Below are positions 38,673-58,459 of a DNA stretch of 64,000 nt, piece by piece. The notes under the pieces were generated by a model. The model did not search any database. It was not told the DNA's origin and saw nothing but the letters and a program-made list of their open reading frames with translations. The position numbers and the translations under genes are program-made. The DNA is from Escherichia coli (GTDB lineage Bacteria > Pseudomonadota > Gammaproteobacteria > Enterobacterales > Enterobacteriaceae), in the NCBI RefSeq assembly GCF_009931435.1, contig NZ_CP043414.1. One strand, written 5' to 3'. The first letter of the stretch is position 1; every line of letters starts with the position of its first letter.

Positions 38673-39206
38673 TTGAAAACATTCCTAATATTTGACATAA
38701 ATCATCAACAAAACACAAAGAGGTCAGACCAGATTGAAGCGATAAAAACGATAATGCAAACTACGCGCCCTCGTATCACATGGAAGGTTTTACCAATGGC
38801 TCAGGTTGCCATTTTTAAAGAAATATTCGATCAAGTGCGAAAAGATTTAAACTGTGAATTGTTTTATTCTGAACTAAAACGTCACAATGTCTCACATTAT
38901 ATTTACTATCTAGCCACAGATAATATTCACATTGTGTTAGAAAACGATAACACCGTGTTAATAAAAGGACTTAAAAAGGTTGTAAATGTTAAATTCTCAA
39001 GAAATACGCATCTTATAGAAACGTCCTATGATAGGTTGAAATCAAGAGAAATCACATTTCAGCAATACAGGGAAAATCTTGCTAAAGCAGGAGTTTTCCG
39101 ATGGATTACAAATATCCACGAACATAAAAGATATTACTATACCTTTGATAATTCATTACTATTTACTGAGAGCATTCAGAACACTACACAAATCTTTCCA
39201 CGCTAA
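38673..39206 (+). CDS. ybcV: Hypothetical protein (YbcV-like)
   Basis: ORF track 177 aa; AT-rich; conserved position next to bor. Confidence 0.55.
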
Positions 39207-39496
39207 ATCATAACGTCCGGTTTCTTCCGTGTCAGCACCGGGGTGTTGGCATAATACAATACATGTACGCGCTAAACCCTGTGTGCATCGTTTTTAATTA
39301 TTCCCGGACACTCCCGCAGAGAAGTTCCCCGTCAGGGCTGTGGACATAGTTAATCCGGGAATACAATGACGATTCATCGCACCTGGCATACATTAATAAA
39401 TATTAACAATATGAAATTTCAACTCATTGTTTAGGGTTTGTTTAATTTTCTACACATACGATTCTGCGAACTTCAAAAAGCATCGGGAATAACACC

Positions 39497-39790
39497 ATGA
39501 AAAAAATGCTACTCGCTACTGCGCTGGCCCTGCTTATTACAGGATGTGCTCAACAGACATTTACTGTTCAAAACAAACAGACAGCAGTAGCACCAAAGGA
39601 AACCATCACCCATCATTTCTTCGTTTCTGGAATTGGGCAGAAGAAAACTGTCGATGCAGCTAAAATTTGTGGCGGCGCAGAAAATGTTGTTAAAACAGAA
39701 ACCCAGCAAACATTCGTAAATGGATTGCTCGGTTTTATTACTTTAGGCATTTATACTCCGCTGGAAGCGCGTGTGTATTGCTCAAAATAA
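39497..39790 (+). CDS. bor: Bor lipoprotein (serum resistance)
   Basis: ORF track 97 aa; lipobox LITGC; recognised Bor sequence. Confidence 0.9.
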   Translation: MKKMLLATALALLITGCAQQTFTVQNKQTAVAPKETITHHFFVSGIGQKKTVDAAKICGGAENVVKTETQQTFVNGLLGFITLGIYTPLEARVYCSK

Positions 39791-39821
39791 TTGCATGAGT
39801 TGCCCATCGATATGGTCAGCT

Positions 39822-40283
39822 CTATCTGCACTGCTCATTAATATACTTCTGGGTTCCTTCCAGTTGTTTTTGCATAGTGATCAGCCTCTCTCTGAGGGTG
39901 AAATAATCCCGTTCAGCGGTGTCTGCCAGTCGGGGGGAGGCTGCATTATCCACGCCGGAGGCCGTGGTGGCTTCACGCACTGACTGACAGACTGCTTTGA
40001 TGTGCAACCGACGACGACCAGCGGCAACATCATCACGCAGAGCATCATTTTCAGCTTTCGCATCAGCTAACTCCTTCGTGTATTTTGCATCGAGCGCAGC
40101 AACATCACGCTGACGCATCTGCATGTCAGTAATTGCCGCGTTCGCTAGCTTCAGTTCTCTGGCATTTTTGTCGCGCTGGACTTTGTAGGCGATTGCGTTA
40201 TCACGGTAATGATTGACCGCCCATGACAGGCTGACGATGATGCAGATAATCAGAGCGGATATAATCGCGGTTACTCTGCTCAC
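39822..40283 (-). CDS. Rz: Spanin inner membrane subunit Rz
   Basis: ORF track 39822..40295; 153-aa product if started at the GTG overlapping the R stop (GTGA); N-terminal TM plus coiled coil. Confidence 0.85.
39881..40063 (-). CDS. Rz1: Spanin outer membrane lipoprotein Rz1, embedded in Rz in another frame
   Basis: ORF track 60 aa; lipobox VVGC; proline-rich; nested inside Rz. Confidence 0.85.
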
Positions 40284-40777
40284 TGTTGCCCCCACAAACA
40301 GACTTCACGCTCAATCTCACGACGAGTCATCAGGCCTTTCCATTGCTTACCGCCAGCGTATGTCCAGCGACGCAGCTGATCACATGCGCCTTTGATATCG
40401 CCCTGGTTTATTTTGCGAAGAAGCGTCGATGTTCTAAAATTGCCAGCACCCACGTTGTAAACGAATGAGTAAAGAGCGCCGCGCGTTGTTTCCGGTATAT
40501 CGACTTTGATATACGGGTTAATTTGTCTGGCGACAGTGGCAAGGTCTTTATTCAAGAGTGCTTTGCATTCTGCTTTGGTATACGTTTTACCGAGCATGAT
40601 GTCTTTTCCGGTGTGTCCGTGACATACAGTCCATACACCAACAATATCTTTGTATGGTATGTAGCTGACACCTTCCAGACCATCGTTACCACTTGGGCCA
40701 GTGATTAACACTGATGCTATAGCAATTGCTCCGCCACCAATAGCAGCAGCAACGGCTTTTCGTAATGATGGAGGCAT
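40280..40777 (-). CDS. R: SAR endolysin (lysozyme with N-terminal signal-arrest-release segment, phage 21 R-like)
   Basis: ORF track 165 aa; hydrophobic Gly/Ala-rich N-terminus followed by lysozyme-type domain. Confidence 0.88.
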
Positions 40778-43235: not shown

Positions 43236-43457
43236 CAACTTACTCCACAAAAATCAGACCAGAACGCCAATTACAAGCAAAAATCAACAAAACAGTATTA
43301 GTTGATTGTTATCTCTGACTTCATACTCCTGCTCCTGTCAGGGTTTTGGCGTAATTCTTCAGTATTCGGTAATCGGTCAAAACAGAACCGGGGAAACGAT
43401 ATAAGCGCAGACGCCCCCAGCGGTGGCGAAGAAGTTCTGCCATATTAAACTCAAACA

Positions 43458-43820
43458 TCATTCATTCCCCATTTCGGTGATGGTCAGTTCCAGCCTCCCA
43501 CCTTTGGTAACAGGCATCTTCACAACGCGGTAATCAACGACCTGAGCATCATCCAGCCAGAAACCTGCTTTAGTGAGTGCGTCAAAAGCGGCTTTTTGCA
43601 GATTATCCAGGTCACGGCGACGGCGATCCGGCATGTGGCACTCAATGCGGATTTTCACAGGCATAGCCAGGCCGATATCCAGCATTGCGTTTTTAATGAT
43701 TCGGGCGACGTTATCGCGGTATGCCTGCCCCTCTGCGCTGACGTGCGTGCGCCCGCGATTATGGCGGTAATAGCGATTATTGCTCGGAGGCCAGGGTAAT
43801 GTGATGCTGTAGGTATTCAC
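43458..43820 (-). CDS. rusA: Holliday junction resolvase RusA
   Basis: ORF track 120 aa; recognised RusA sequence. Confidence 0.9.
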
Positions 43821-44146
43821 GCCTTAATAACCCCCTCTTTCAGCCAGATAACCTGTGTTCTCGCCATACCTTCCAGCGCGCATTCTTTTGCATATCCAGC
43901 GTCAACAAAATGCGTGCGGCGGTCGATTTCGTCGTGGCAGGCAGAACATGCAATGGTGGCAATCAGGTCTGGCGGTTTCGTACCGGTGCCGCACAATCCA
44001 GTCAGCCGGATATGTGCCAGTACAGACGTTTCAGGGTTGCCATTACATACGCCAGGGATTCTTACCTGGCATTCCCGACCACGCGCTGCTTTTCTCAAAT
44101 CAGCCATGACTCCTCCTTGCTGCCAGTCGCAACCATTTTTTATCAA
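43817..44146 (-). CDS. ybcO: Cys-rich nin-region protein (YbcO-like)
   Basis: ORF track 109 aa; position between ninE and rusA. Confidence 0.65.
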
Positions 44147-44270
44147 CCAAGCTGGCGGTATATCCGAGCAGTGTTGGTATTTCGGATGGCTTCAGCTCAG
44201 GTTTACGCTTACGACGATTTGGTACTCTGTAGATGTGTCCGTTCATGACACGAATAAGCGGTGTAGCCAT
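44100..44270 (-). CDS. ninE: NinE-like protein
   Basis: ORF track 44100..44333; internal Met chosen (56 aa), start overlapping the ybcN stop. Confidence 0.6.
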   Translation of the reverse strand: MATPLIRVMNGHIYRVPNRRKRKPELKPSEIPTLLGYTASLVDKKWLRLAARRSHG

Positions 44271-44725
44271 TACGCCTCCTGCTTGTCGCGCAGCAGCTGG
44301 AACTCGCAGCTCTGTGGAATAGTCAGGTGGCAACCAATATTCATCGCCCAGGCTTCAACCTTACACAGGAAGACATACATCTCTCCGGTATCAAGATCGG
44401 AGGTATGGCGTAACGACTGGATAGTGGTGATATCACCGGTTACGACATCAACCAGGTCTTTGGTTTCATAACCGAGATATGTGTGTTTGAGAGCATCTTT
44501 TACCCAAGCTGGAGTGGCGAACGTTTTACCCCTGCTGATGAGGTATTCACTGATTTCGCTGTACCACATGTGGCTGAGTGCATTCTGGGAAAGACTGCGT
44601 TTCTCACGCCACGGTTTAAGCACCATGCGAAAGCATTTGCCCTCCTCCAGATAAGGCTGGATCTGCCGACCGATAGCGGTGAAGTTGCCGCGATGTAATT
44701 TGATGCCGTCTTGTGAGAGGTTCAC
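44270..44725 (-). CDS. ybcN: nin-region protein YbcN
   Basis: ORF track 151 aa; K-12 DLP12 gene order. Confidence 0.75.
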
Positions 44726-44939
44726 GCTTCCCCTCCGCAGAGGTCAAACGCTAGATGCAAAGAATTGCAGGTGCATTTCTGCATCTGTGAAGGGAGAAGA
44801 GAGTTTGGATTGTATGTGCGCATAAACGTCCCCGTTTAGCGCAGAAGTCACCGGAGTTGTTCAGGCTCCGGTGACATAATTATGCCGTGTTGATTTCCCA
44901 AAATCAAAATCGATAGAATTGCTCCTTCTTAAAACACTT

Positions 44940-45737
44940 TTACTCTCTGGAAGCTTTTCTTATCTCTCTTGGTGTTATATTAAAACGATTATGAAATCTT
45001 TCAGTAAAACGAGAAGGACACTTATAACCATTTTCTCTGGCAATCTCGCTTATAGGTTTTACCGTCGTTTGTATAGCAGACAACGCATTATTTAACCTCA
45101 CATCGTCCAGTATACTTTGGAAACTTACCCCCTCGCTTGCTAGACGGCGATGTAATGTAGAAACAGAAATGTAGAGATATCGAGCAACCTTGTTTGCTGT
45201 CCATTTTGTGCCGGGTTCGGATAGCAGCAGGTTATAACAACGACTTATCAATGATTGTTTACTATATGATAAAAGTAAATGATTAACATGATTCACTCCT
45301 AACGAAAGTAGAACGCCCATTGCTAAGTGCTCCTGAATTTTAGTTGAGAAGCCTCGGGAAACAGATGTTTTTAGTTGCTCCCAACAATATATTAACTCAG
45401 GATTCTGAGGTAAAAAGAAACTTGTTTTGTTACGTATTTGATCAGTTACCGTATAAAGTTTTTGGAAACTCTCAATTAAATCAATGGGTAAGTAAAGCAT
45501 TTCTGCAAGATAAAGCCCTGCTTCAGGATAATTCTCAATATAAAATTCATAACCACAAGGAAATAATATTATTTGATTATTATCAACAGTTAAAGTATGC
45601 GTCTCCCAATTGATAACTTTCTTTCCCTGACGGATACGACACAAAGCTGGCATAAGAGGCTTAACCCTATGAATCTCATGATGTTTATGCATCCGTATTT
45701 CTTCGATCTTTAAGTTAGTCTTACCTCTTGCCAGCAT
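44940..45737 (-). CDS. ybcM: AraC-family transcriptional regulator YbcM
   Basis: ORF track 265 aa; C-terminal AraC HTH; low GC. Confidence 0.78.
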
Positions 45738-46762: not shown

Positions 46763-48289
46763 TTAGAAATAAATCTCACCATCAACCATATATTTGAGAG
46801 CACTTATCGCCTGCTGGGCGGATATTACTTTCATTAAAGGATAGTGTTTAAAAACAATGCCATTCATAAAATAGATATCACAGGTTTTATTATCCGTATT
46901 AATTATGATTTTTTCGAATGTTTTATAGGCAAGTGTACGGCATAACTCTCGTCCATTTTTACTGGTTAAGTCAATAGCATAAAAATCACTGAATGAATTT
47001 ACACCTTTACTCTTCAAAGTTTTCAATGATACCGAAGCCCTTCGTAATTCCTTATCTAATAGTCTTATTTTCTCTGCTATAGCGGTAACTTCAGGCGCGA
47101 CAGACAATGCAACGATTAAATTATTAATTTTCATCTGAAGCTCAATAATTTTTAACTCTAAAGTTTCATTAGCATCTTTCTTGTTTTCAACTGGTTGAAT
47201 TTTGCTACAATTAAAAAGCAATTCATTAATGATATTATAATCAACCAAATCTCTTTTTATTGATGGCCTGTCACATCGATGTAATCTTCTCATCGGACAA
47301 ACATAATAGCCATGCAAACTTCCAGATACCGCATGAACAATCATGGTATTACCACAAGCCTCACACTTCATAACTGTTCGAAGTAGATTTATTAGCATAG
47401 GATTCTTGCTACTATTGCTAATACCAAAAGGTGCCAACCGAATTTCCTGTACAGCGTAAAACAAATCATCTGATATGACTCTGGGATAATAGCCAGCGAT
47501 TTCACTTATCCCTTTCCCTCTTGCACGATATGAAGGTACGCAAATACCTATCAGAGCTTTATTCGCTAATAATTTTTCAATTACAGAAGGTCCCCATGCA
47601 CTTTCTTTTCCTGAGAAATTCTTTACAGCATGATCATTTAAATACTTGGCTATTGCATTCAATGAGCGCCTTTCCATCCTGAGTTTAAAAATTAGCTCAA
47701 TAGTTTTCACCCTGTCTGGGTCTGGAACAAAAGCCGTTCTTTTGTCATCTAAGGAGAGCCATCTCGGATAAGACGCCGTCATAATCGTACCTGATTCCAG
47801 TGCATCCTGCCGTTTTTTCTTCCATGATAATTTAACCCGACTTGACTTTATCTCGCTTTCTTCATTTGCCCTTTGTGCTATAAGTATGGCTTTTATTAAT
47901 GAATATGGCTCATTCAAAGAGTCAATATTATAGACTGTATTGTCGCAAAGAGTTATAACATCAATACCGTGATTCAAAATCAATTTCAGACGTTCAATCG
48001 CTTCACCGACTTTTTCTCTTGAAAGTCTGTCCAGACTTTCAACTAACAATGTAGTTCCTGGCAATATATAACCATGCTCTATAGCATCTAAAAATTCCGA
48101 AAAAGCTCCTGATTGTGCATGCTTTCCTTTGAATGCACTTAATCCTAAATCTTCATATGTTATGGTATCAAGATAATAATCACTATTTACCTTTAACCAT
48201 TCAGCAATAAGTCTTCTCTGTCGGTTTAATGAGTCGCCAGACATCTGACCTGGTGATGAAAATCGCATATATGCTATGGCTTTTTTCAT
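46763..48289 (-). CDS. ybcK: Large serine recombinase (YbcK-like)
   Basis: ORF track 508 aa; N-terminal resolvase catalytic motif (YMRFSS), Cys-rich zinc ribbon, C-terminal coiled coil. Confidence 0.82.
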   Translation of the reverse strand: MKKAIAYMRFSSPGQMSGDSLNRQRRLIAEWLKVNSDYYLDTITYEDLGLSAFKGKHAQSGAFSEFLDAIEHGYILPGTTLLVESLDRLSREKVGEAIERLKLILNHGIDVITLCDNTVYNIDSLNEPYSLIKAILIAQRANEESEIKSSRVKLSWKKKRQDALESGTIMTASYPRWLSLDDKRTAFVPDPDRVKTIELIFKLRMERRSLNAIAKYLNDHAVKNFSGKESAWGPSVIEKLLANKALIGICVPSYRARGKGISEIAGYYPRVISDDLFYAVQEIRLAPFGISNSSKNPMLINLLRTVMKCEACGNTMIVHAVSGSLHGYYVCPMRRLHRCDRPSIKRDLVDYNIINELLFNCSKIQPVENKKDANETLELKIIELQMKINNLIVALSVAPEVTAIAEKIRLLDKELRRASVSLKTLKSKGVNSFSDFYAIDLTSKNGRELCRTLAYKTFEKIIINTDNKTCDIYFMNGIVFKHYPLMKVISAQQAISALKYMVDGEIYF

Positions 48290-48543
48290 GGTGACACCTG
48301 CTAACGTATGCTTTTATAAACCTTAGTGGTGGGATATAATTTTTGTTTATTTTTTATTTAAAAAGACAATTAAGGTCACATTATCTTGAATATACAACAA
48401 TAATCGTATTGCAATTTTCTTACGCCATAATCTTGAAAGCACAAAAGAATACATAAAAAATAAAGACATTAACAAAAAGCATAAAACGAGGCTCATATAA
48501 ATATAAGAGCCTCCATATTTTAGTCGTTTAGAAACAAATTATT

Positions 48544-48876
48544 TTAATGTGGTGTGCTTCGTGACAATAAATTAATAATCAACACACCGGCACAAATCAA
48601 CATCATGCCTATAATGGCTGGCAGGTCCAGCCGTTGGCCGAAAAATCCCCATGACAGTAAGCTAATCAGGACAATACCGACTCCTGACCAGATAGCATAA
48701 GCAATCCCTGTAGGAATATAAGCCAGCGTCTGAGCTAATAACCAGAATGATGCACAATAACAAATAATTGTACCAACAGATGGCCATAACCGTGTAAAAC
48801 CTTCTGAAAACTTCATTAAGGTTGTACCAATGACCTCTGCAAGTATTGCACCACCAAGATAAATATAAGGGTTCAT
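48544..48876 (-). CDS. emrE: SMR-family multidrug efflux transporter EmrE
   Basis: ORF track 48544..48930; start at MNPYIYLGG gives 110 aa; four TM segments. Confidence 0.9.
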   Translation of the reverse strand: MNPYIYLGGAILAEVIGTTLMKFSEGFTRLWPSVGTIICYCASFWLLAQTLAYIPTGIAYAIWSGVGIVLISLLSWGFFGQRLDLPAIIGMMLICAGVLIINLLSRSTPH

Positions 48877-48943
48877 AGCATATTCTTTCCTGTTCAAACT
48901 GGAGAGAATTGTACTACAGTTTGAACTCAACTCACCTGTTTCA

Positions 48944-49246
48944 TCATTGTGTTCCCATTGATGTTCTTTTATATACCCTCAATACCCGTTTCATCGCGGC
49001 ACTCTGGCGACACTCCTTAAAAATCAGATTCGTGCTCACCTTTCCTTCCCATTCTTCTCTGGTAGCGAACCGGTAATACACCGTTCGCCAGACCTTACCA
49101 TCAACGACCAGGATTCCTGCCCGCGCCATTTTAGCCGCAGCCTGATTTATGCTGGTTACGGTTGCGCCTGTTACCGCGGCAACGTCCTGTGCACAGAAGC
49201 TCTTATGCGTCCCCAGGTAATGAATAATTGCCTCTTTGCCCGTCAT
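48944..49246 (-). CDS. ren: Ren-like protein
   Basis: ORF track 100 aa; immediately downstream of P as in lambda. Confidence 0.7.
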   Translation of the reverse strand: MTGKEAIIHYLGTHKSFCAQDVAAVTGATVTSINQAAAKMARAGILVVDGKVWRTVYYRFATREEWEGKVSTNLIFKECRQSAAMKRVLRVYKRTSMGTQ

Positions 49247-49944
49247 ACACTTGCTCCTTTCAGTCCGAACTTAGCTTTAATTTCTGCGATCTTCGCCAGA
49301 GCCTGTGCACGATTTAGAGGTCTACCGCCCATAACAGGAAGTTGTTTTACTGGTTCAGGTATCGTCTCACCACGGTTAATTCGCGCTGTCATACAGGTCA
49401 GTTCATCGGCAGCCTTGCGCCGTAATTCCGCGTCAGCCAGCGCATTGGCCCGCATGTTCTGGTACAAGTTGGTAACCAACCAGTAATGCGCGTTCGATTT
49501 CCACGGATAAGACTCTGCATCCGGATACAGGCCACGCTTCCGGCAATACTCGTAAACCATATCAACCAGCTCGCTGACGTTTGGCAGCCCGGCGTTAACA
49601 GATGCTTCTTCCCGGCACCAGGCGACAAACTGCCCGGGTGATGGCAGGAATGGTCGATTCTGCCGACGGGCTACGCGCATTCCAGCGTTAACCTGTTCCA
49701 TTGTGGTGATCCCGTTTTCCCGGAAAGCCAGAACCCACTGGCGGCGGATTTCGTTCAGTTCATTCTGGTCACGGTTAGCCAGGCTAGCCGGGAAAGTTGC
49801 CAGTAACTGGCTGAACACACCGTTGATGATCTGCGCTACCTGCTGTACCTGCGGCTTTTCGTCGTACTGTTCCGGCATATTGTTGGCGATCCGGCGCATC
49901 TGCTCACGGTCAAAGTTAACCATCTGTGCGGCGATGTTTTTCAT
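49243..49944 (-). CDS. P: Replication protein P (DnaB helicase loader)
   Basis: ORF track 233 aa, lambda gpP length. Confidence 0.9.
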   Translation of the reverse strand: MKNIAAQMVNFDREQMRRIANNMPEQYDEKPQVQQVAQIINGVFSQLLATFPASLANRDQNELNEIRRQWVLAFRENGITTMEQVNAGMRVARRQNRPFLPSPGQFVAWCREEASVNAGLPNVSELVDMVYEYCRKRGLYPDAESYPWKSNAHYWLVTNLYQNMRANALADAELRRKAADELTCMTARINRGETIPEPVKQLPVMGGRPLNRAQALAKIAEIKAKFGLKGASV

Positions 49945-50960
49945 AAATCCACCCCGTAAATCCAGTCAGTGTTCGTCAGGTCGAGTTTTGGTTTGCCGGC
50001 TGTCACGCCAGCCTGTTGCTTGTTTCGGTTGATTTCGAGCTGGGTCCACTTGTCGCGGAGTTTGGCCGGACTCAGCACGTTACCGGACCAGAAGTTGTCC
50101 TGGCATGCCCAGCGGAACAGCACGCACATGTCGCGGTGGTTACGTCCGTCACGTTCACGCATCAGGCGGATATCGTTAGCCCACCCTGCAAAATTCGGTT
50201 TTCTGGCTGATGGCGCGATGGTCTTCACCATGTCAAACATCCACTCTGCGGCGGTCAGGTCTTCTGCTGTCCCCCACTTGCTGCCACTCTGAATTGCAGC
50301 ATCCGGTTTCACCACAGGAAGGTCGTTTTCTGGCTGGTCAGAGGATTCGCCAGAATTCTCGGACGAAAAAGGTTTTATATTGTCTTTTGTTAGTTTGTCT
50401 TTTGTGTTTACCTGATTCGGGTAAACGCCTTTACCTGATTTGGGTAAACTTTTCTTACCTGATTCAGGTAAATTTACCTCTTTCAGGTAAACTTTATTTT
50501 TCTTACCTGATTCGGGTAATGTTGACCATTCACTGACCACATTATTAATGCCGATATTTCGCCCGCTCTGAATAAGAATCCCACGCTTTACCAGAACGCT
50601 TTTTGCAGCAGAACACTTGTGCGGCAATATCCCGGTCAATTCGGAAAGTTGCTCGTTGCTCACCCAATCCAGTCTTTTATTAAAGCCATATGTTTTGCGC
50701 ATGACAGCCAGGAAGACCAGAAGCTGGTGCTGTGTTAATCCGGCCAGCATCACAGCTTCCAGCAACTCATTTGCAATGCGCGTATAACCATCATCGAGAT
50801 CTGCCACGCGCGGCTCCTTTTGTGCCGCATCCGGCACTGGAAAATTGAATATCTCAGCAGTGTTTGCCATAATTCCTCCCGCAATGAGTGTGTTACGATT
50901 TGCACCTGAAAGTCGGTTCTGTTCCCGCAGACCGACTTTCGCCATTTCTGAACCTATCAT
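49941..50960 (-). CDS. O: Replication initiator O (lambda-like C-terminal half; non-lambda N-terminal half and iterons)
   Basis: ORF track 339 aa; contains ori iterons and AT-rich segment; start overlaps upstream stop (ATGA). Confidence 0.85.
   Translation of the reverse strand: MIGSEMAKVGLREQNRLSGANRNTLIAGGIMANTAEIFNFPVPDAAQKEPRVADLDDGYTRIANELLEAVMLAGLTQHQLLVFLAVMRKTYGFNKRLDWVSNEQLSELTGILPHKCSAAKSVLVKRGILIQSGRNIGINNVVSEWSTLPESGKKNKVYLKEVNLPESGKKSLPKSGKGVYPNQVNTKDKLTKDNIKPFSSENSGESSDQPENDLPVVKPDAAIQSGSKWGTAEDLTAAEWMFDMVKTIAPSARKPNFAGWANDIRLMRERDGRNHRDMCVLFRWACQDNFWSGNVLSPAKLRDKWTQLEINRNKQQAGVTAGKPKLDLTNTDWIYGVDL
50405..50525. repeat. Phage replication origin: about five iterons of the form TACCTGATTCGGGTAAAC inside the O gene
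   Basis: Direct repeats each with internal dyad TACC..GGTA, read on the + strand; adjacent AT-rich stretch. Confidence 0.7.
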
Positions 50961-51496
50961 ATTGCCCCCAGCATGGTGGTCACCATCGCCATTAATGGAC
51001 CAGCCAGATCCGGGTCCACACGAAACATCGACACAATACCTTCACTCATTTCCTTCAGTTTCTGGTGGCGTGGTGCGTTGAGAATGACAGCCTGTTTTGC
51101 CTCACTGAGTTCCTTTTCCATTTCAGCCAACCGAGTCATGAAGCTATCCTGCTCAACCAGGTAACCGCGATATTCCAGCGGTAGTACCGCCAGAATTGCC
51201 GGGGTCAGTTCACGCACGTTATTTCGGTATTTTTCAGAATCGAATTTGTTATCGAGGAAGCGGAACAGCTTCTGGCGTGCACGGCTGACATCATCAGGGA
51301 AATCGATGGTGCCGTCGCCCTGCTCCCGATACTCATTCACAATGAGTGCGGCAACGACATCCTGATTATCTACAGCCGACCAGGCGCGGACGGCATCACG
51401 GATTTTTTCGTGGCCTGGAGCTTGTTTTGTTTGAGAACGATTTATCACCGCAGTCGGAATAAATCCGCTAGTCTGTTGGTATGTAAGTGGTTGCAT
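50957..51496 (-). CDS. YdaT-like protein at the cII position
   Basis: ORF track 179 aa; follows the Cro-like gene and is coupled to O. Confidence 0.55.
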   Translation of the reverse strand: MQPLTYQQTSGFIPTAVINRSQTKQAPGHEKIRDAVRAWSAVDNQDVVAALIVNEYREQGDGTIDFPDDVSRARQKLFRFLDNKFDSEKYRNNVRELTPAILAVLPLEYRGYLVEQDSFMTRLAEMEKELSEAKQAVILNAPRHQKLKEMSEGIVSMFRVDPDLAGPLMAMVTTMLGAI

Positions 51497-51565: not shown

Positions 51566-51796
51566 TTAAGCTGCGTTCTTTTCGGTGTGTGGAAACAACT
51601 TCGGAAGATCCGGGCGAATCTGGTATGCCTTCACAACTCCACCAGTAGCCGTAACAATGCTGCCGACATGTTCAGGGGATACCTTTGCTTTGTTGTGAAG
51701 CCACTTATAGACGGCCTGCTGTGAAACTTCGCAGGCATCGCCTAGTTTCTTTTGTGAACCAACGATATTGATCGCTGTTTTGATTGCTGGGTTCAT
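51566..51796 (-). CDS. Cro/YdaS-like HTH regulator
   Basis: ORF track 76 aa; HTH (QQAVYKWL); divergent from repressor gene. Confidence 0.7.
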   Translation of the reverse strand: MNPAIKTAINIVGSQKKLGDACEVSQQAVYKWLHNKAKVSPEHVGSIVTATGGVVKAYQIRPDLPKLFPHTEKNAA

Positions 51797-51900
51797 AACA
51801 ACCTCCGTGGTTAATCCGAATCAAGATTAAAACTATGGTTGTTTTTAGTCAACAACCATTTTCGTTTGATGAAATAAAACCTTGGTTGTACATTTGATCT
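51797..51900. promoter_or_regulatory. Right operator/divergent promoter region with ATGGTTGTT-N7-AACAACCAT palindrome and extra TGGTTGT half-sites
   Basis: Inverted repeat read at about 51835..51859 between the divergent repressor and cro-like genes. Confidence 0.55.
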
Positions 51901-52590
51901 ATGAAAACAACACTCTCAGAAAGACTTAAAGAAGCCAGATTAGCGCGAGGCCTTACACAAAAGGCGCTTGGGGATTTGGTCGGGGTTAGCCAGGCTGCTA
52001 TTCAGAAAATCGAAACAGGGAAAGCTAACCAAACAACTAAAATCGTGGAGATCGCGAACGCTTTGGGTGTACGCGCAGAATGGTTATCTTCTGGCGTTGG
52101 AAATATGTCAGACAGTACAGTGCAACCAATACAATCAACTGTCAGCCATTCCAAATACTTCAAAATTGACGTTCTTGATATAGAAGTCAGTGCCGGGCCA
52201 GGTGTAATCAACCGTGAGTTTGTAGAAGTTCTACGCTCGGTTGAGTACTCGTTTGACGATGCTCGTCACATGTTCGATGGCAGGAAGGCGGAAAATATCC
52301 GCATCATTAACGTGCGAGGTGACAGCATGTCAGGGACGATCGAACCAGGTGACCTGCTGTTCGTTGATATCACTGTTAAATCTTTCGACGGTGATGGCAT
52401 CTATGCGTTTCTGTACGACGACACTGCCCATGTAAAACGTCTTCAAATGATGAAGGATAAGCTGCTGGTTATCTCTGATAACAAGAGCTACTCGCCGTGG
52501 GACCCGATCGAGAAAGACGAGATGAACCGGGTGTTCATATTCGGTAAGGTCATTGGAAGCATGCCGCAGACGTACAGGAAGCATGGTTAA
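51901..52590 (+). CDS. Prophage repressor, LexA/S24-peptidase type (CI analogue)
   Basis: ORF track 229 aa; N-terminal HTH plus C-terminal autoproteolysis domain. Confidence 0.85.
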   Translation: MKTTLSERLKEARLARGLTQKALGDLVGVSQAAIQKIETGKANQTTKIVEIANALGVRAEWLSSGVGNMSDSTVQPIQSTVSHSKYFKIDVLDIEVSAGPGVINREFVEVLRSVEYSFDDARHMFDGRKAENIRIINVRGDSMSGTIEPGDLLFVDITVKSFDGDGIYAFLYDDTAHVKRLQMMKDKLLVISDNKSYSPWDPIEKDEMNRVFIFGKVIGSMPQTYRKHG

Positions 52591-57005: not shown

Positions 57006-57348
57006 GGCCTGTCAGTTTCTTAAGATATCCAGACCAACCGCCACCAACTGGATACGAACAGGCCGCCTACAGGCAACACGTAAAGATCCAACCAAGCCAA
57101 AATCTCCTTACCTCACAACACGGCAAGCCTGCATTGCGGCGCTTCAGTCTCCGCTGCATACTGTCCAGGTGAGCGCGGGTGATGGCATAACAGAGGAAAG
57201 AAAATGTCACTCTTCCGCAGAAATGAAATATGGTATGCCTCGTATTCGCTCCCGGGCGGGAAACGAATTAAGGAATCTCTTGGCACAAAGGACAAGCGGC
57301 AAGCTCAGGAGTTGCACGACAAGCGAAAAGCAGAACTCTGGCGAGTAG
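56977..57348 (+). CDS. xis: Putative excisionase (HTH, AlpA/Xis-like N-terminus); 3' end uncertain, overlaps int
   Basis: ORF track 56947..57348; internal Met MESYSL..; N-terminal HTH; position upstream of int. Confidence 0.5.
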
Positions 57349-58367
57349 AAAAGCTAGGGGATTTACCTGATGTCACTTTTGAAGAGGCCTGCCTAAGATG
57401 GCTTGAGGAAAAAGCTGATAAAAAATCTCTCGATTCAGATAAAAGCCGGATTGAGTTCTGGCTTGAACATTTTGAGGGTATAAGGCTTAAAGATATCTCG
57501 GAGGCAAAGATTTACTCTGCTGTAAGCAGAATGCATAACAGAAAGACGAAAGAAATATGGAAACAGAAAGTTCAGGCCGCCATCAGGAAAGGTAAAGAAC
57601 TGCCTGTTTATGAACCAAAGCCAGTATCAACTCAGACAAAGGCAAAGCATCTTGCCATGATAAAGGCCATTCTCCGTGCTGCAGAACGCGACTGGAAGTG
57701 GCTGGAAAAAGCGCCTGTCATCAAGATACCAGCGGTCAGAAACAAGCGAGTCAGATGGCTGGAAAAGGAGGAAGCAAAACGCCTTATTGATGAGTGCCCC
57801 GAACCACTGAAATCTGTCGTCAAGTTTGCGCTGGCAACTGGTCTGAGAAAGTCGAACATCATAAATCTGGAATGGCAACAAATCGACATGCAGCGACGAG
57901 TTGCCTGGGTGAATCCAGAAGAGAGCAAATCAAACCGCGCCATTGGTGTGGCGCTGAACGATACCGCCTGTAAAGTGTTGCGTGATCAAATAGGCAAGCA
58001 TCACAAATGGGTGTTTGTACATACCAAGGCGGCTAAGCGAGCAGATGGAACATCAACGCCTGCGGTCAGGAAGATGCGCATCGACAGCAAGACATCATGG
58101 CTATCAGCTTGTCGTCGTGCAGGAATTGAAGATTTCCGTTTCCATGACCTCAGACACACCTGGGCAAGCTGGCTGATTCAGTCAGGCGTCCCATTATCAG
58201 TGCTTCAGGAAATGGGCGGATGGGAGTCCATAGAAATGGTTCGTAGGTATGCTCACCTTGCGCCTAATCATTTGACAGAGCATGCGAGGAAAATAGACGA
58301 CATTTTTGGTGATAATGTCCCAAATATGTCCCACTCTGAAATTATGGAGGATATAAAGAAGGCGTAA
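57204..58367 (+). CDS. intD: Tyrosine integrase (DLP12 IntD-like)
   Basis: ORF track 387 aa; C-terminal catalytic domain; adjacent to tRNA-Arg. Confidence 0.9.
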
Positions 58368-58382
58368 CTGATTGAATTGTAA

Positions 58383-58459
58383 TGGCGCGCCCTGCAGGAT
58401 TCGAACCTGCGGCCCACGACTTAGAAGGTCGTTGCTCTATCCAACTGAGCTAAGGGCGC
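58383..58459 (-). tRNA. argU: tRNA-Arg (anticodon UCU, argU)
   Basis: 77-nt sequence with CCA end matching argU by recall; its 3' 45 nt is the prophage attachment repeat. Confidence 0.88.

Follow-up and report, generated by a model that had tools for sequence, protein, structure and literature searches.

The replication region of the 64-kb stretch of DNA analysed here (the window) very probably represents the origin and initiator of a DLP12-type lambdoid prophage, which is a member of the lambda O/ori family with a different origin-specificity class and a recombinant O gene. The N-terminal domain of its O protein and the iterons embedded in the gene are of a non-lambda type, and the C-terminal half of O, the P gene and ren are lambda-like. 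These observations support the original prediction that the DNA-binding domain and its iterons had been exchanged as a pair, with the P-interaction domain retained, and on alignment with lambda neither the N-terminus of O nor the iterons were identical to their lambda counterparts. A mosaic O of this kind is the known modular design of lambdoid phages, a principle that dates back to the 1970s.

The O genes of lambda, 434, 21, phi80, P22, HK97, SEN34, GZ7, 1W and a widespread Salmonella prophage were included in the comparison. Across these genes, the N-domain type and the C-domain type assort independently, and the iteron class goes with the N-domain type. The iterons are TCCCTCAAAACGAGGGA in lambda, 434 and 21, TTCCCGAAAACGGGAA in phi80, TTACCAGATCGGTAA-like in P22, TTAGC-N7-GCTAA in HK97 and SEN34, and TTACC-N7-GGTAA in the window, 1W, GZ7 and the Salmonella prophage. 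Phages 21 and phi80, against which the prediction was to be checked, both differ from the window: phage 21 is lambda-type, with four lambda iterons, and phi80 falls into another specificity class, with its own iterons and a gp15-type N-domain. The simplest reading of these sequence relationships is that homologous or short-homology recombination in the ori core moved the N-domain with its iterons against the C-domain with its helicase loader. The features of the region are listed in Table 1.

Table 1. Positions of the features of the O/ori region in the window
Feature	Position	Strand	Description
O-type replication initiator gene	49941..50870	-	309 aa; probable start ATG at 50870
N-terminal origin-binding domain, non-lambda type (aa 1-115)	50526..50870	-	assigned by homology
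Predicted recognition helix (aa 83-95)	50586..50624	-	PHKCSAAKSVLVK; AlphaFold helix H83-95
Iteron 1	50503..50519	-	TTACCCGAATCAGGTAA on coding strand
Iteron 2	50474..50490	-	TTACCTGAAAGAGGTAA on coding strand
Iteron 3	50455..50471	-	TTACCTGAATCAGGTAA on coding strand; most symmetric copy (16/17 positions)
Iteron 4	50431..50447	-	TTACCCAAATCAGGTAA on coding strand
Iteron 5	50408..50424	-	TTACCCGAATCAGGTAA on coding strand; adjoins AT-rich tract
AT-rich tract, presumed unwinding element	50368..50407	-	ACACAAAAGACAAACTAACAAAAGACAATATAAAACCTTT on coding strand; 40 bp
Conserved imperfect palindrome, right edge of ori	50346..50367	-	TTCGTCCGAGAATTCTGGCGAA
Lambda-type C-terminal half of O, presumed P-binding domain	49941..50367	-	similarity to lambda
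P gene, helicase loader, lambda type	49243..49944	-	Pfam Phage_lambda_P (PF06992), E=2e-61
Candidate oop-like antisense RNA unit	50845..50940	+	between cII-like gene and O

The O gene and its five iterons

The O reading frame matched the Pfam family Phage_rep_O (PF04492) over the full 95-position profile (E=4.1e-34; score 117 bits, cut-off 28.7 bits) and was aligned with lambda O by BLASTP at E=1e-148. In the program-made list of open reading frames, the longest version of O extends from 49941 to 50960 (339 aa), and this is also the version found in public annotations. The BLASTP alignment, which places MANTAEIF... of the window O against MTNTAKIL... of lambda O, opens at M31 of this frame. 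The ATG at 50870 is preceded by a GGGAGGA Shine-Dalgarno sequence, and both line up with their counterparts in lambda O and phi80 gene 15. Thus, the start of O was set at 50870, which is probably the true start rather than 50960. The segment 50871-50960, which the original prediction had included in O, is probably non-coding for this gene, and public annotations of the allele begin O probably 30 codons early and leave the origin unmarked.

A separate observation concerns the opposite strand between the cII-like gene and O. A promoter scan found a promoter-like site at 50845-50873 (TTGAAT-17-TGnCATAAT), lying over the O start codon, and a hairpin is present at 50908-50940 (inverted repeat; RNA fold z=-3.8). 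This candidate oop-like unit occupies the same position as the M3 RNA of phi80 and the oop RNA of lambda, and it matched no Rfam family.

Directly after the N-domain, five 17-bp dyad-symmetric repeats with the consensus TTACCYGAWTCRGGTAA are located inside the O gene at 50408-50519. When the consensus was searched with up to three mismatches, five matches were obtained in the 64-kb window, all within the O array, compared with a mean chance expectation of 0.37 matches; none of 100 dinucleotide shuffles reached five. The original prediction of about five iterons in the ori was thus accurate, the TACCTGATTCGGGTAAAC type that it described being what the copy at 50406-50425 reads on the plus strand. 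It had also held these iterons to be unlike those of lambda, and the lambda type that it gave is correct: lambda (J02459) contains four TCCCTCAAAACGAGGGA-type copies with a spacing of 20/24/23 bp. With iterons that differ throughout and an N-domain that is 49% identical in amino acid sequence, the window lies outside the ori specificity class of lambda, 434, 21 and the Stx phages.

The five iterons of the window are spaced by 29/19/24/23 bp. Since the 19/24/23-bp spacing of iterons 2-5 resembles that of the lambda array, and the alignment agrees, iterons 2-5 correspond by position to lambda iterons 1-4. Iteron 1 has no counterpart in the lambda array and is placed 29 bp upstream of iteron 2, within a 30-nt insertion in the alignment, and iteron 2 deviates from the consensus at its centre. 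A full-text literature search with the iteron motif returned no match, and the TTACC-N7-GGTAA class appears to be undescribed in the searchable literature. A scan of 48.5-53.5 kb against Rfam gave nothing real, with chance sub-threshold matches on the iterons only.

As the repeats are translated, and three of the five encode LP(E/K)SGK, they might be regarded as the by-product of a repeated linker peptide in O (LPESGKK-like units) rather than as protein-binding sites. We consider this very improbable. Depending on the copy, the DNA motif falls into one of two codon phases, and the peptides encoded are unrelated, being of the LPESGK type in one phase and of the VY(L/P)(K/N)(E/Q)VN type (VYLKEVN, VYPNQVN) in the other, and between 12 and 16 of the 17 positions of each iteron are self-complementary, a symmetry that would be meaningless for a peptide. 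In addition, when the iterons of the window, GZ7 and the Salmonella prophage were compared as three lineages, TTACC (positions 1-5) and the GGTAA-side half-site (AGGTA, positions 12-16) were invariant in 15 of 15 copies, while the centre was variable. The two codon phases and the invariant half-sites indicate that the iterons are conserved at the DNA level and not at the peptide level, and together with the dyad symmetry they speak against the peptide-repeat explanation, which was rejected. The position and spacing of the repeats also agree with those of the experimentally defined lambda iterons.

The N-terminal domain and its predicted recognition helix

The N-domain of the window O (aa 1-115) shares 83% amino acid identity with that of GZ7, 60% with P22 gp18 and 39% with phi80, in addition to the 49% shared with lambda. 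An AlphaFold model of residues 1-124, built from seven sequences, had a mean pLDDT of 73.6, rising to about 90 over residues 71-110. The modelled domain is a winged helix-turn-helix, with helices at 47-63, 72-79 and 83-95 and a beta-hairpin at 99-108. A Foldseek search of the model against the PDB returned weak matches to generic winged-helix regulators, none at E <= 0.001, and thus no specific structural relative is claimed; a sequence search found no solved structure of any O homologue.

Among seven O proteins (lambda, phi80, P22, HK97, SEN34, GZ7 and the window), the stretch at aa 81-92, which comprises the turn and the third helix, varies with the iteron class. It reads ILPHKCSAAKS in both the window and GZ7 and ILPHKCSSAKS in the Salmonella O. 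The equivalent stretch is MAPTKCSTAKN in P22, IHHTHVCAAKR in HK97, KHHTHCSTAKN in SEN34, LPVKRCNEAKL in lambda and LSDTHVSDALK in phi80. HK97 and SEN34 both possess TTAGC...GCTAA iterons, yet their N-domains are only 38% identical overall, which indicates that specificity is predicted by the helix-turn-helix stretch and not by the similarity of the whole domain. By homology with lambda O, the window N-domain would bind the TTACC-N7-GGTAA iterons, and the co-variation, seen in a few independent types, and the medium-confidence model are suggestive of a role for helix 83-95 in reading the iteron half-sites.

The lambda-like half and the presumed crossover zone

The similarity between the window and lambda changes along the O gene. 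In 30-column blocks of the nucleotide alignment, identity ranges from 10 to 77% up to the AT-rich tract and from 93 to 100% between 50367 and 49941, and the near-identity starts at the palindrome. The coding sequence of the C-terminal half contains 16 mismatches to lambda in 427 nt (about 96% nucleotide identity). At the protein level, O is 94% identical to lambda from the TKD motif, encoded in the AT-rich tract, to its end, and BLASTP showed that the tail from SSENSGESSDQPEND (SSENSGESSDQ) to the C-terminus differs from lambda O at two residues. The P gene overlaps the stop codon of O by 4 nt, and 227 of the 233 residues of its product (97%) are identical to lambda P. A lambda-type C-half of O followed by an adjoining PF06992 P gene reproduces the features of the lambda O-P pair.

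The AT-rich tract, whose GC content is 0.325 in two 40-nt windows that begin at 50360 and 50380, behaves differently. It is identical to lambda at 28 of 40 positions (about 70%), and its similarity to the equivalents in SEN34, GZ7 and P22 is at least as high. The ACACAAAAGACA motif of the tract is common to lambda, P22, HK97 and GZ7, and SEN34 has CCACAAAAGACA. This tract is thus conserved across the family and is not specific to lambda. The original prediction had considered both the AT-rich segment and the C-terminal half of O to be lambda-like, a description that fits the C-half but not the AT-rich segment. The palindrome is found in lambda, 434, phi80 and SEN34, all of which have P-type partners, and is absent in P22, HK97 and GZ7. 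Both elements occupy their lambda positions relative to the iterons.

A single blastn match joins window 50407-48971 to lambda 39119-40555 (1437 nt, 93.8%) and takes in the AT-rich tract, the O C-half, P and nearly all of ren. The tract of GZ7-like homology extends from 50879 to 50378 (80.5%). As the two tracts overlap only at 50378-50407, inside the AT-rich core, the AT-rich tract is the likely crossover zone, and the recombination junction of the mosaic O likely lies within it. The left part of O, with the N-domain and iterons, very probably belongs to a lineage in common with Klebsiella and Salmonella prophages, and the right part, consisting of the O C-half, P and ren, is a 1.4-kb lambda-like tract. 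Under this model, the conserved AT-rich ori core would supply the short homology needed for module exchange. As the binding sites are embedded beside the domain that would read them, the N-domain and iterons would be inherited as one unit, which could then be combined with different helicase-loader modules.

The architecture, homology, mosaic boundaries and DNA-level conservation given here were observed, and the way in which binding, unwinding and P recruitment might proceed can be modelled on lambda. The N-terminal part of lambda O is DNA-binding, its C-terminal part is P-binding, and a dimer occupies each iteron (PMC6022878, citing Furth & Yates 1978, Wickner & Zahn 1986, Tsurimoto & Matsubara 1981). 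Similarly, dimers of the window O would bind the five TTACC-N7-GGTAA iterons through the winged-helix N-domain (aa ~25-115, with the recognition helix at ~83-95). The resulting nucleoprotein complex would destabilise the adjoining 40-bp AT-rich tract, in keeping with a scheme in which iterons and the neighbouring AT-rich tract form the unwinding unit (PMC7466680, citing Dodson et al. 1986). The lambda-type C-half of O would finally recruit the lambda-type P carrying host DnaB.

Prophage setting and relation to known systems

The prophage is located at the tRNA-Arg(TCT) gene argU (58383-58459), beside an integrase reading frame at 57204-58367. In a genome with a 100% identical O, the region is annotated with intD, exo/bet/gam, an S24 repressor, YdaS-/YdaT-like regulators, a 'replication protein' and P, as well as emrE, ybcK, ybcL/M/N, ninE, rusA and quuD. 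This gene set is that of the DLP12 family. The full-length O allele is present at 97-99% nucleotide identity in 15 deposited phage genomes, including 4A7, Lambda_4C10, 1W, 3W, Perceval, several PhiR phages, Turner and IdasGreatGrand; those inspected are classed as Bievrevirus, and the gene is annotated as replication protein O. Among 5426 complete E. coli genomes, 2241 (about 41%) carry the allele when a match over at least 80% of the O gene length is required, and about 1049 further genomes match part of O only, presumably the lambda-like half. The N-module occurs widely in E. coli, Salmonella, Klebsiella and Scandinavium. It is a tentative suggestion, of which we are slightly more doubtful than confident, that the TTACC-N7-GGTAA and ILPHKCSAAKS pair represents an origin-specificity class never experimentally characterised, though among P-linked O types it would be the most frequent in E. 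coli genomes.

Two other explanations bear on how this locus should be read. Near-identical O C-half and P sequences occur in several prophages, in up to five places per genome, and can mislead assemblers; the mosaic might then be an assembly or annotation artefact, that is, a chimeric contig of two prophages with lambda-like P genes. The chance of this is negligible, because the identical junction, over at least 80% of the gene, recurs in the 2241 complete genomes and the 15 independently sequenced phages, and the artefact explanation was accordingly rejected. It is also conceivable, although unlikely, that the structure is as described but is the inert relic of a cryptic prophage that no longer fires as an origin. 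The argU site with intD, emrE and ybcK is as in DLP12, and DLP12 of K-12 is a defective prophage; moreover, the occurrence of the allele in 41% of complete E. coli genomes suggests that many copies are vertically inherited and possibly decaying. However, the O and P reading frames are intact here, and the region from ~14 to 58 kb contains reading frames that, mostly by size, resemble tail, head, terminase, lysis, recombination and integrase genes. The nin region is continuous, whereas ybcN of strain GPEC1446 carries an IS3, and O alleles 97-99% identical to that of the window are found in phages isolated on E. coli C, MG1655 and ECOR13. The preferred reading thus remains that of a lambda-family origin and initiator with a recombinant O.

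These results confirm the classical modular view of lambdoid replication genes for an allele that is very common among E. coli prophages, which in itself is of little discovery value. The gains are a corrected gene start, explicit ori coordinates, a crossover zone and a small helix-iteron series. The replicon specificity would be distinct from that of lambda and Stx phages despite the same P-recruiting half, which bears on cross-talk between co-resident prophages: as the class has its lambda-type C-half and P in common with Stx/lambda-type prophages, prophages residing together could, if this holds, use or compete for a common P and yet retain origins of their own. The natural recognition-helix/iteron pairs of lambda, phi80, P22, HK97/SEN34 and the window could guide work on swapping O specificity, and such a natural series of classes could, if true, be used to read how O-type winged-helix initiators recognise DNA.

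Among the closest known systems are the Bievrevirus-type coliphages (4A7, Lambda_4C10, 1W, 3W, Perceval, PhiR30_1 and others), with the same full-length O allele and the same neighbours (YdaT-like cII, P, ren, emrE and ybcK) and no substantive difference; the feature table of phage 1W, where the gene is annotated as O, contains no iteron annotation. Klebsiella phage GZ7 and the Salmonella prophage O (P0084) have N-domains 83-84% identical to that of the window and, as in the window, five iterons with identical half-sites at gene nt 352/381/400/424/447. Unlike that of the window, their C-terminal domains are unrelated to lambda's, and their partners are an IstB/DnaC-like ATPase in GZ7 and a divergent P (36% identical to the window P) in Salmonella. 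SEN34 has a lambda-like O C-part (79%) and P together with another N-domain and iteron class.

P22 and HK97 have a common C-domain type (64%) and a DnaB-like partner, and their N-domains and iterons differ. The iterons of P22 gene 18 have TTACC/GGTAA ends, and the AT-rich tract starts with ACACAAAAGACA, as in the window, but the iteron core is 15-16 bp, the C-domain is unrelated and the partner is the DnaB-like helicase gp12. With no meaningful similarity to the C-part of gp18 and with a P partner instead of a helicase, the window does not belong to the P22 gp18 class. Lambda, together with 434 and 21, resembles the window in the order cII-like/O/P/ren, the origin within O, the dyad-symmetric iterons, the AT-rich tract and the palindrome; the window has five iterons instead of four and a linker 10 aa longer.

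In phage 82, the left half of O is reported to be non-lambda, whereas its right half and P are reported to resemble lambda, and there may be five repeats. The iteron class of the window may be the classical phage-82 type, the comparison with phage 82 covering its nin-Q fragment (X92588), to which the nin region of the window (43331-44956) is 97.3% identical; literature searches found nothing on the phage 82 origin. If the window did match ori-82, the present finding would simply be an 82-type origin.

More generally, O-type proteins of different origin specificity have different sequences, and each comes with its own iterons (PMC8022706). PMC6022878, citing Furth & Yates (1978), describes how crossovers within O yield functional hybrids and how the two-domain model of O was derived in 1978 from lambda-phi80 and lambda-82 hybrids. 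The same account assigns ori specificity to the N-part and P specificity to the C-part of these hybrid O proteins, and the mosaic O of the window follows the same principle.

Possible exchangeable units within O

The O protein of Salmonella phage SEN34 (1501-2406) looks mosaic within its N-domain. Its first ~75 aa resemble window-type O, while its helix-turn-helix stretch, KHHTHCSTAKN, and its TTAGC...GCTAA iterons are like those of HK97; its C-half and its P are of lambda-like type (79%). This pattern points to aa ~76-100 as the probable seat of O specificity.

At the other end of the protein, the O proteins of Klebsiella phage GZ7 and of a Salmonella prophage (P0084) have the same N-module and iterons and, for the most part, the same C-domain, and the difference between them lies in the last ~25-30 residues. 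GZ7 O is partnered by an IstB/DnaC-like ATPase, P0084 by a member of the P family. A third unit of exchange, fitted to the loader, may lie in the extreme C-terminal tail of O.

In phage D2 (OM475427), the first 246 nt of the O gene (1591-2522) are window-type, and the remainder switches to lambda sequence, lambda iterons included. The switch is accompanied by a ~30-nt duplication and a frameshift, and two CDS are annotated for the gene. Either D2 O arose by natural recombination within the N-domain and is broken, or the sequencing or assembly is at fault.

The O start and the immunity region

The promoter-like site at the O start (see table) has a -10 element that overlaps the O start codon, as in lambda pO, and together with its downstream hairpin it occupies the same position as lambda oop and phi80 M3 RNA. 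These features suggest a candidate oop-like antisense RNA between the cII-like gene and O, and they speak against the 30 extra N-terminal codons that the annotation gives O (50871-50960) being genuine.

The immunity region (51566-52590) is not lambda-like. It encodes YdaS- and YdaT-type proteins, which have been argued to be Cro and CII analogues rather than toxins (PMC8630535), and the two repeats in its divergent promoter region look like candidate operators.

Features of the window around O
Feature	Position	Strand	Remarks
Large serine recombinase (ybcK)	46763-48289
SMR efflux pump (emrE)	48544-48930
Promoter-like site, TTGAAT-17-TGnCATAAT	within 50845-50955	+	between cII-like (YdaT-type) gene and O start
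Strong hairpin	50908-50940	+	downstream of promoter-like site; RNA fold z=-3.8
YdaT-type CII analogue	50957-51496	-	67.6% nt identity to phi80 cII region
YdaS-type Cro analogue	51566-51796	-
15-nt direct repeat	51828 and 51875		divergent promoter region
9-bp perfect inverted repeat	51835-51859		divergent promoter region
S24/LexA-like repressor	51901-52590	+

Cargo and the nin-Q junction

Between ren and the nin region lie emrE, ylcJ and ybcK (46763-48930), which are cargo inside the early-right operon and are also carried by the isolated phages 1W and D2. The nin region itself (43331-44956, ybcN-ninE-ybcO-rusA-ylcG) matches fragment X92588 of phage 82 at 97.3% identity. This similarity ends just before the Q gene; the Q region of the window is therefore not similar to Q82 at the nucleotide level, and the edge is a further mosaic junction.
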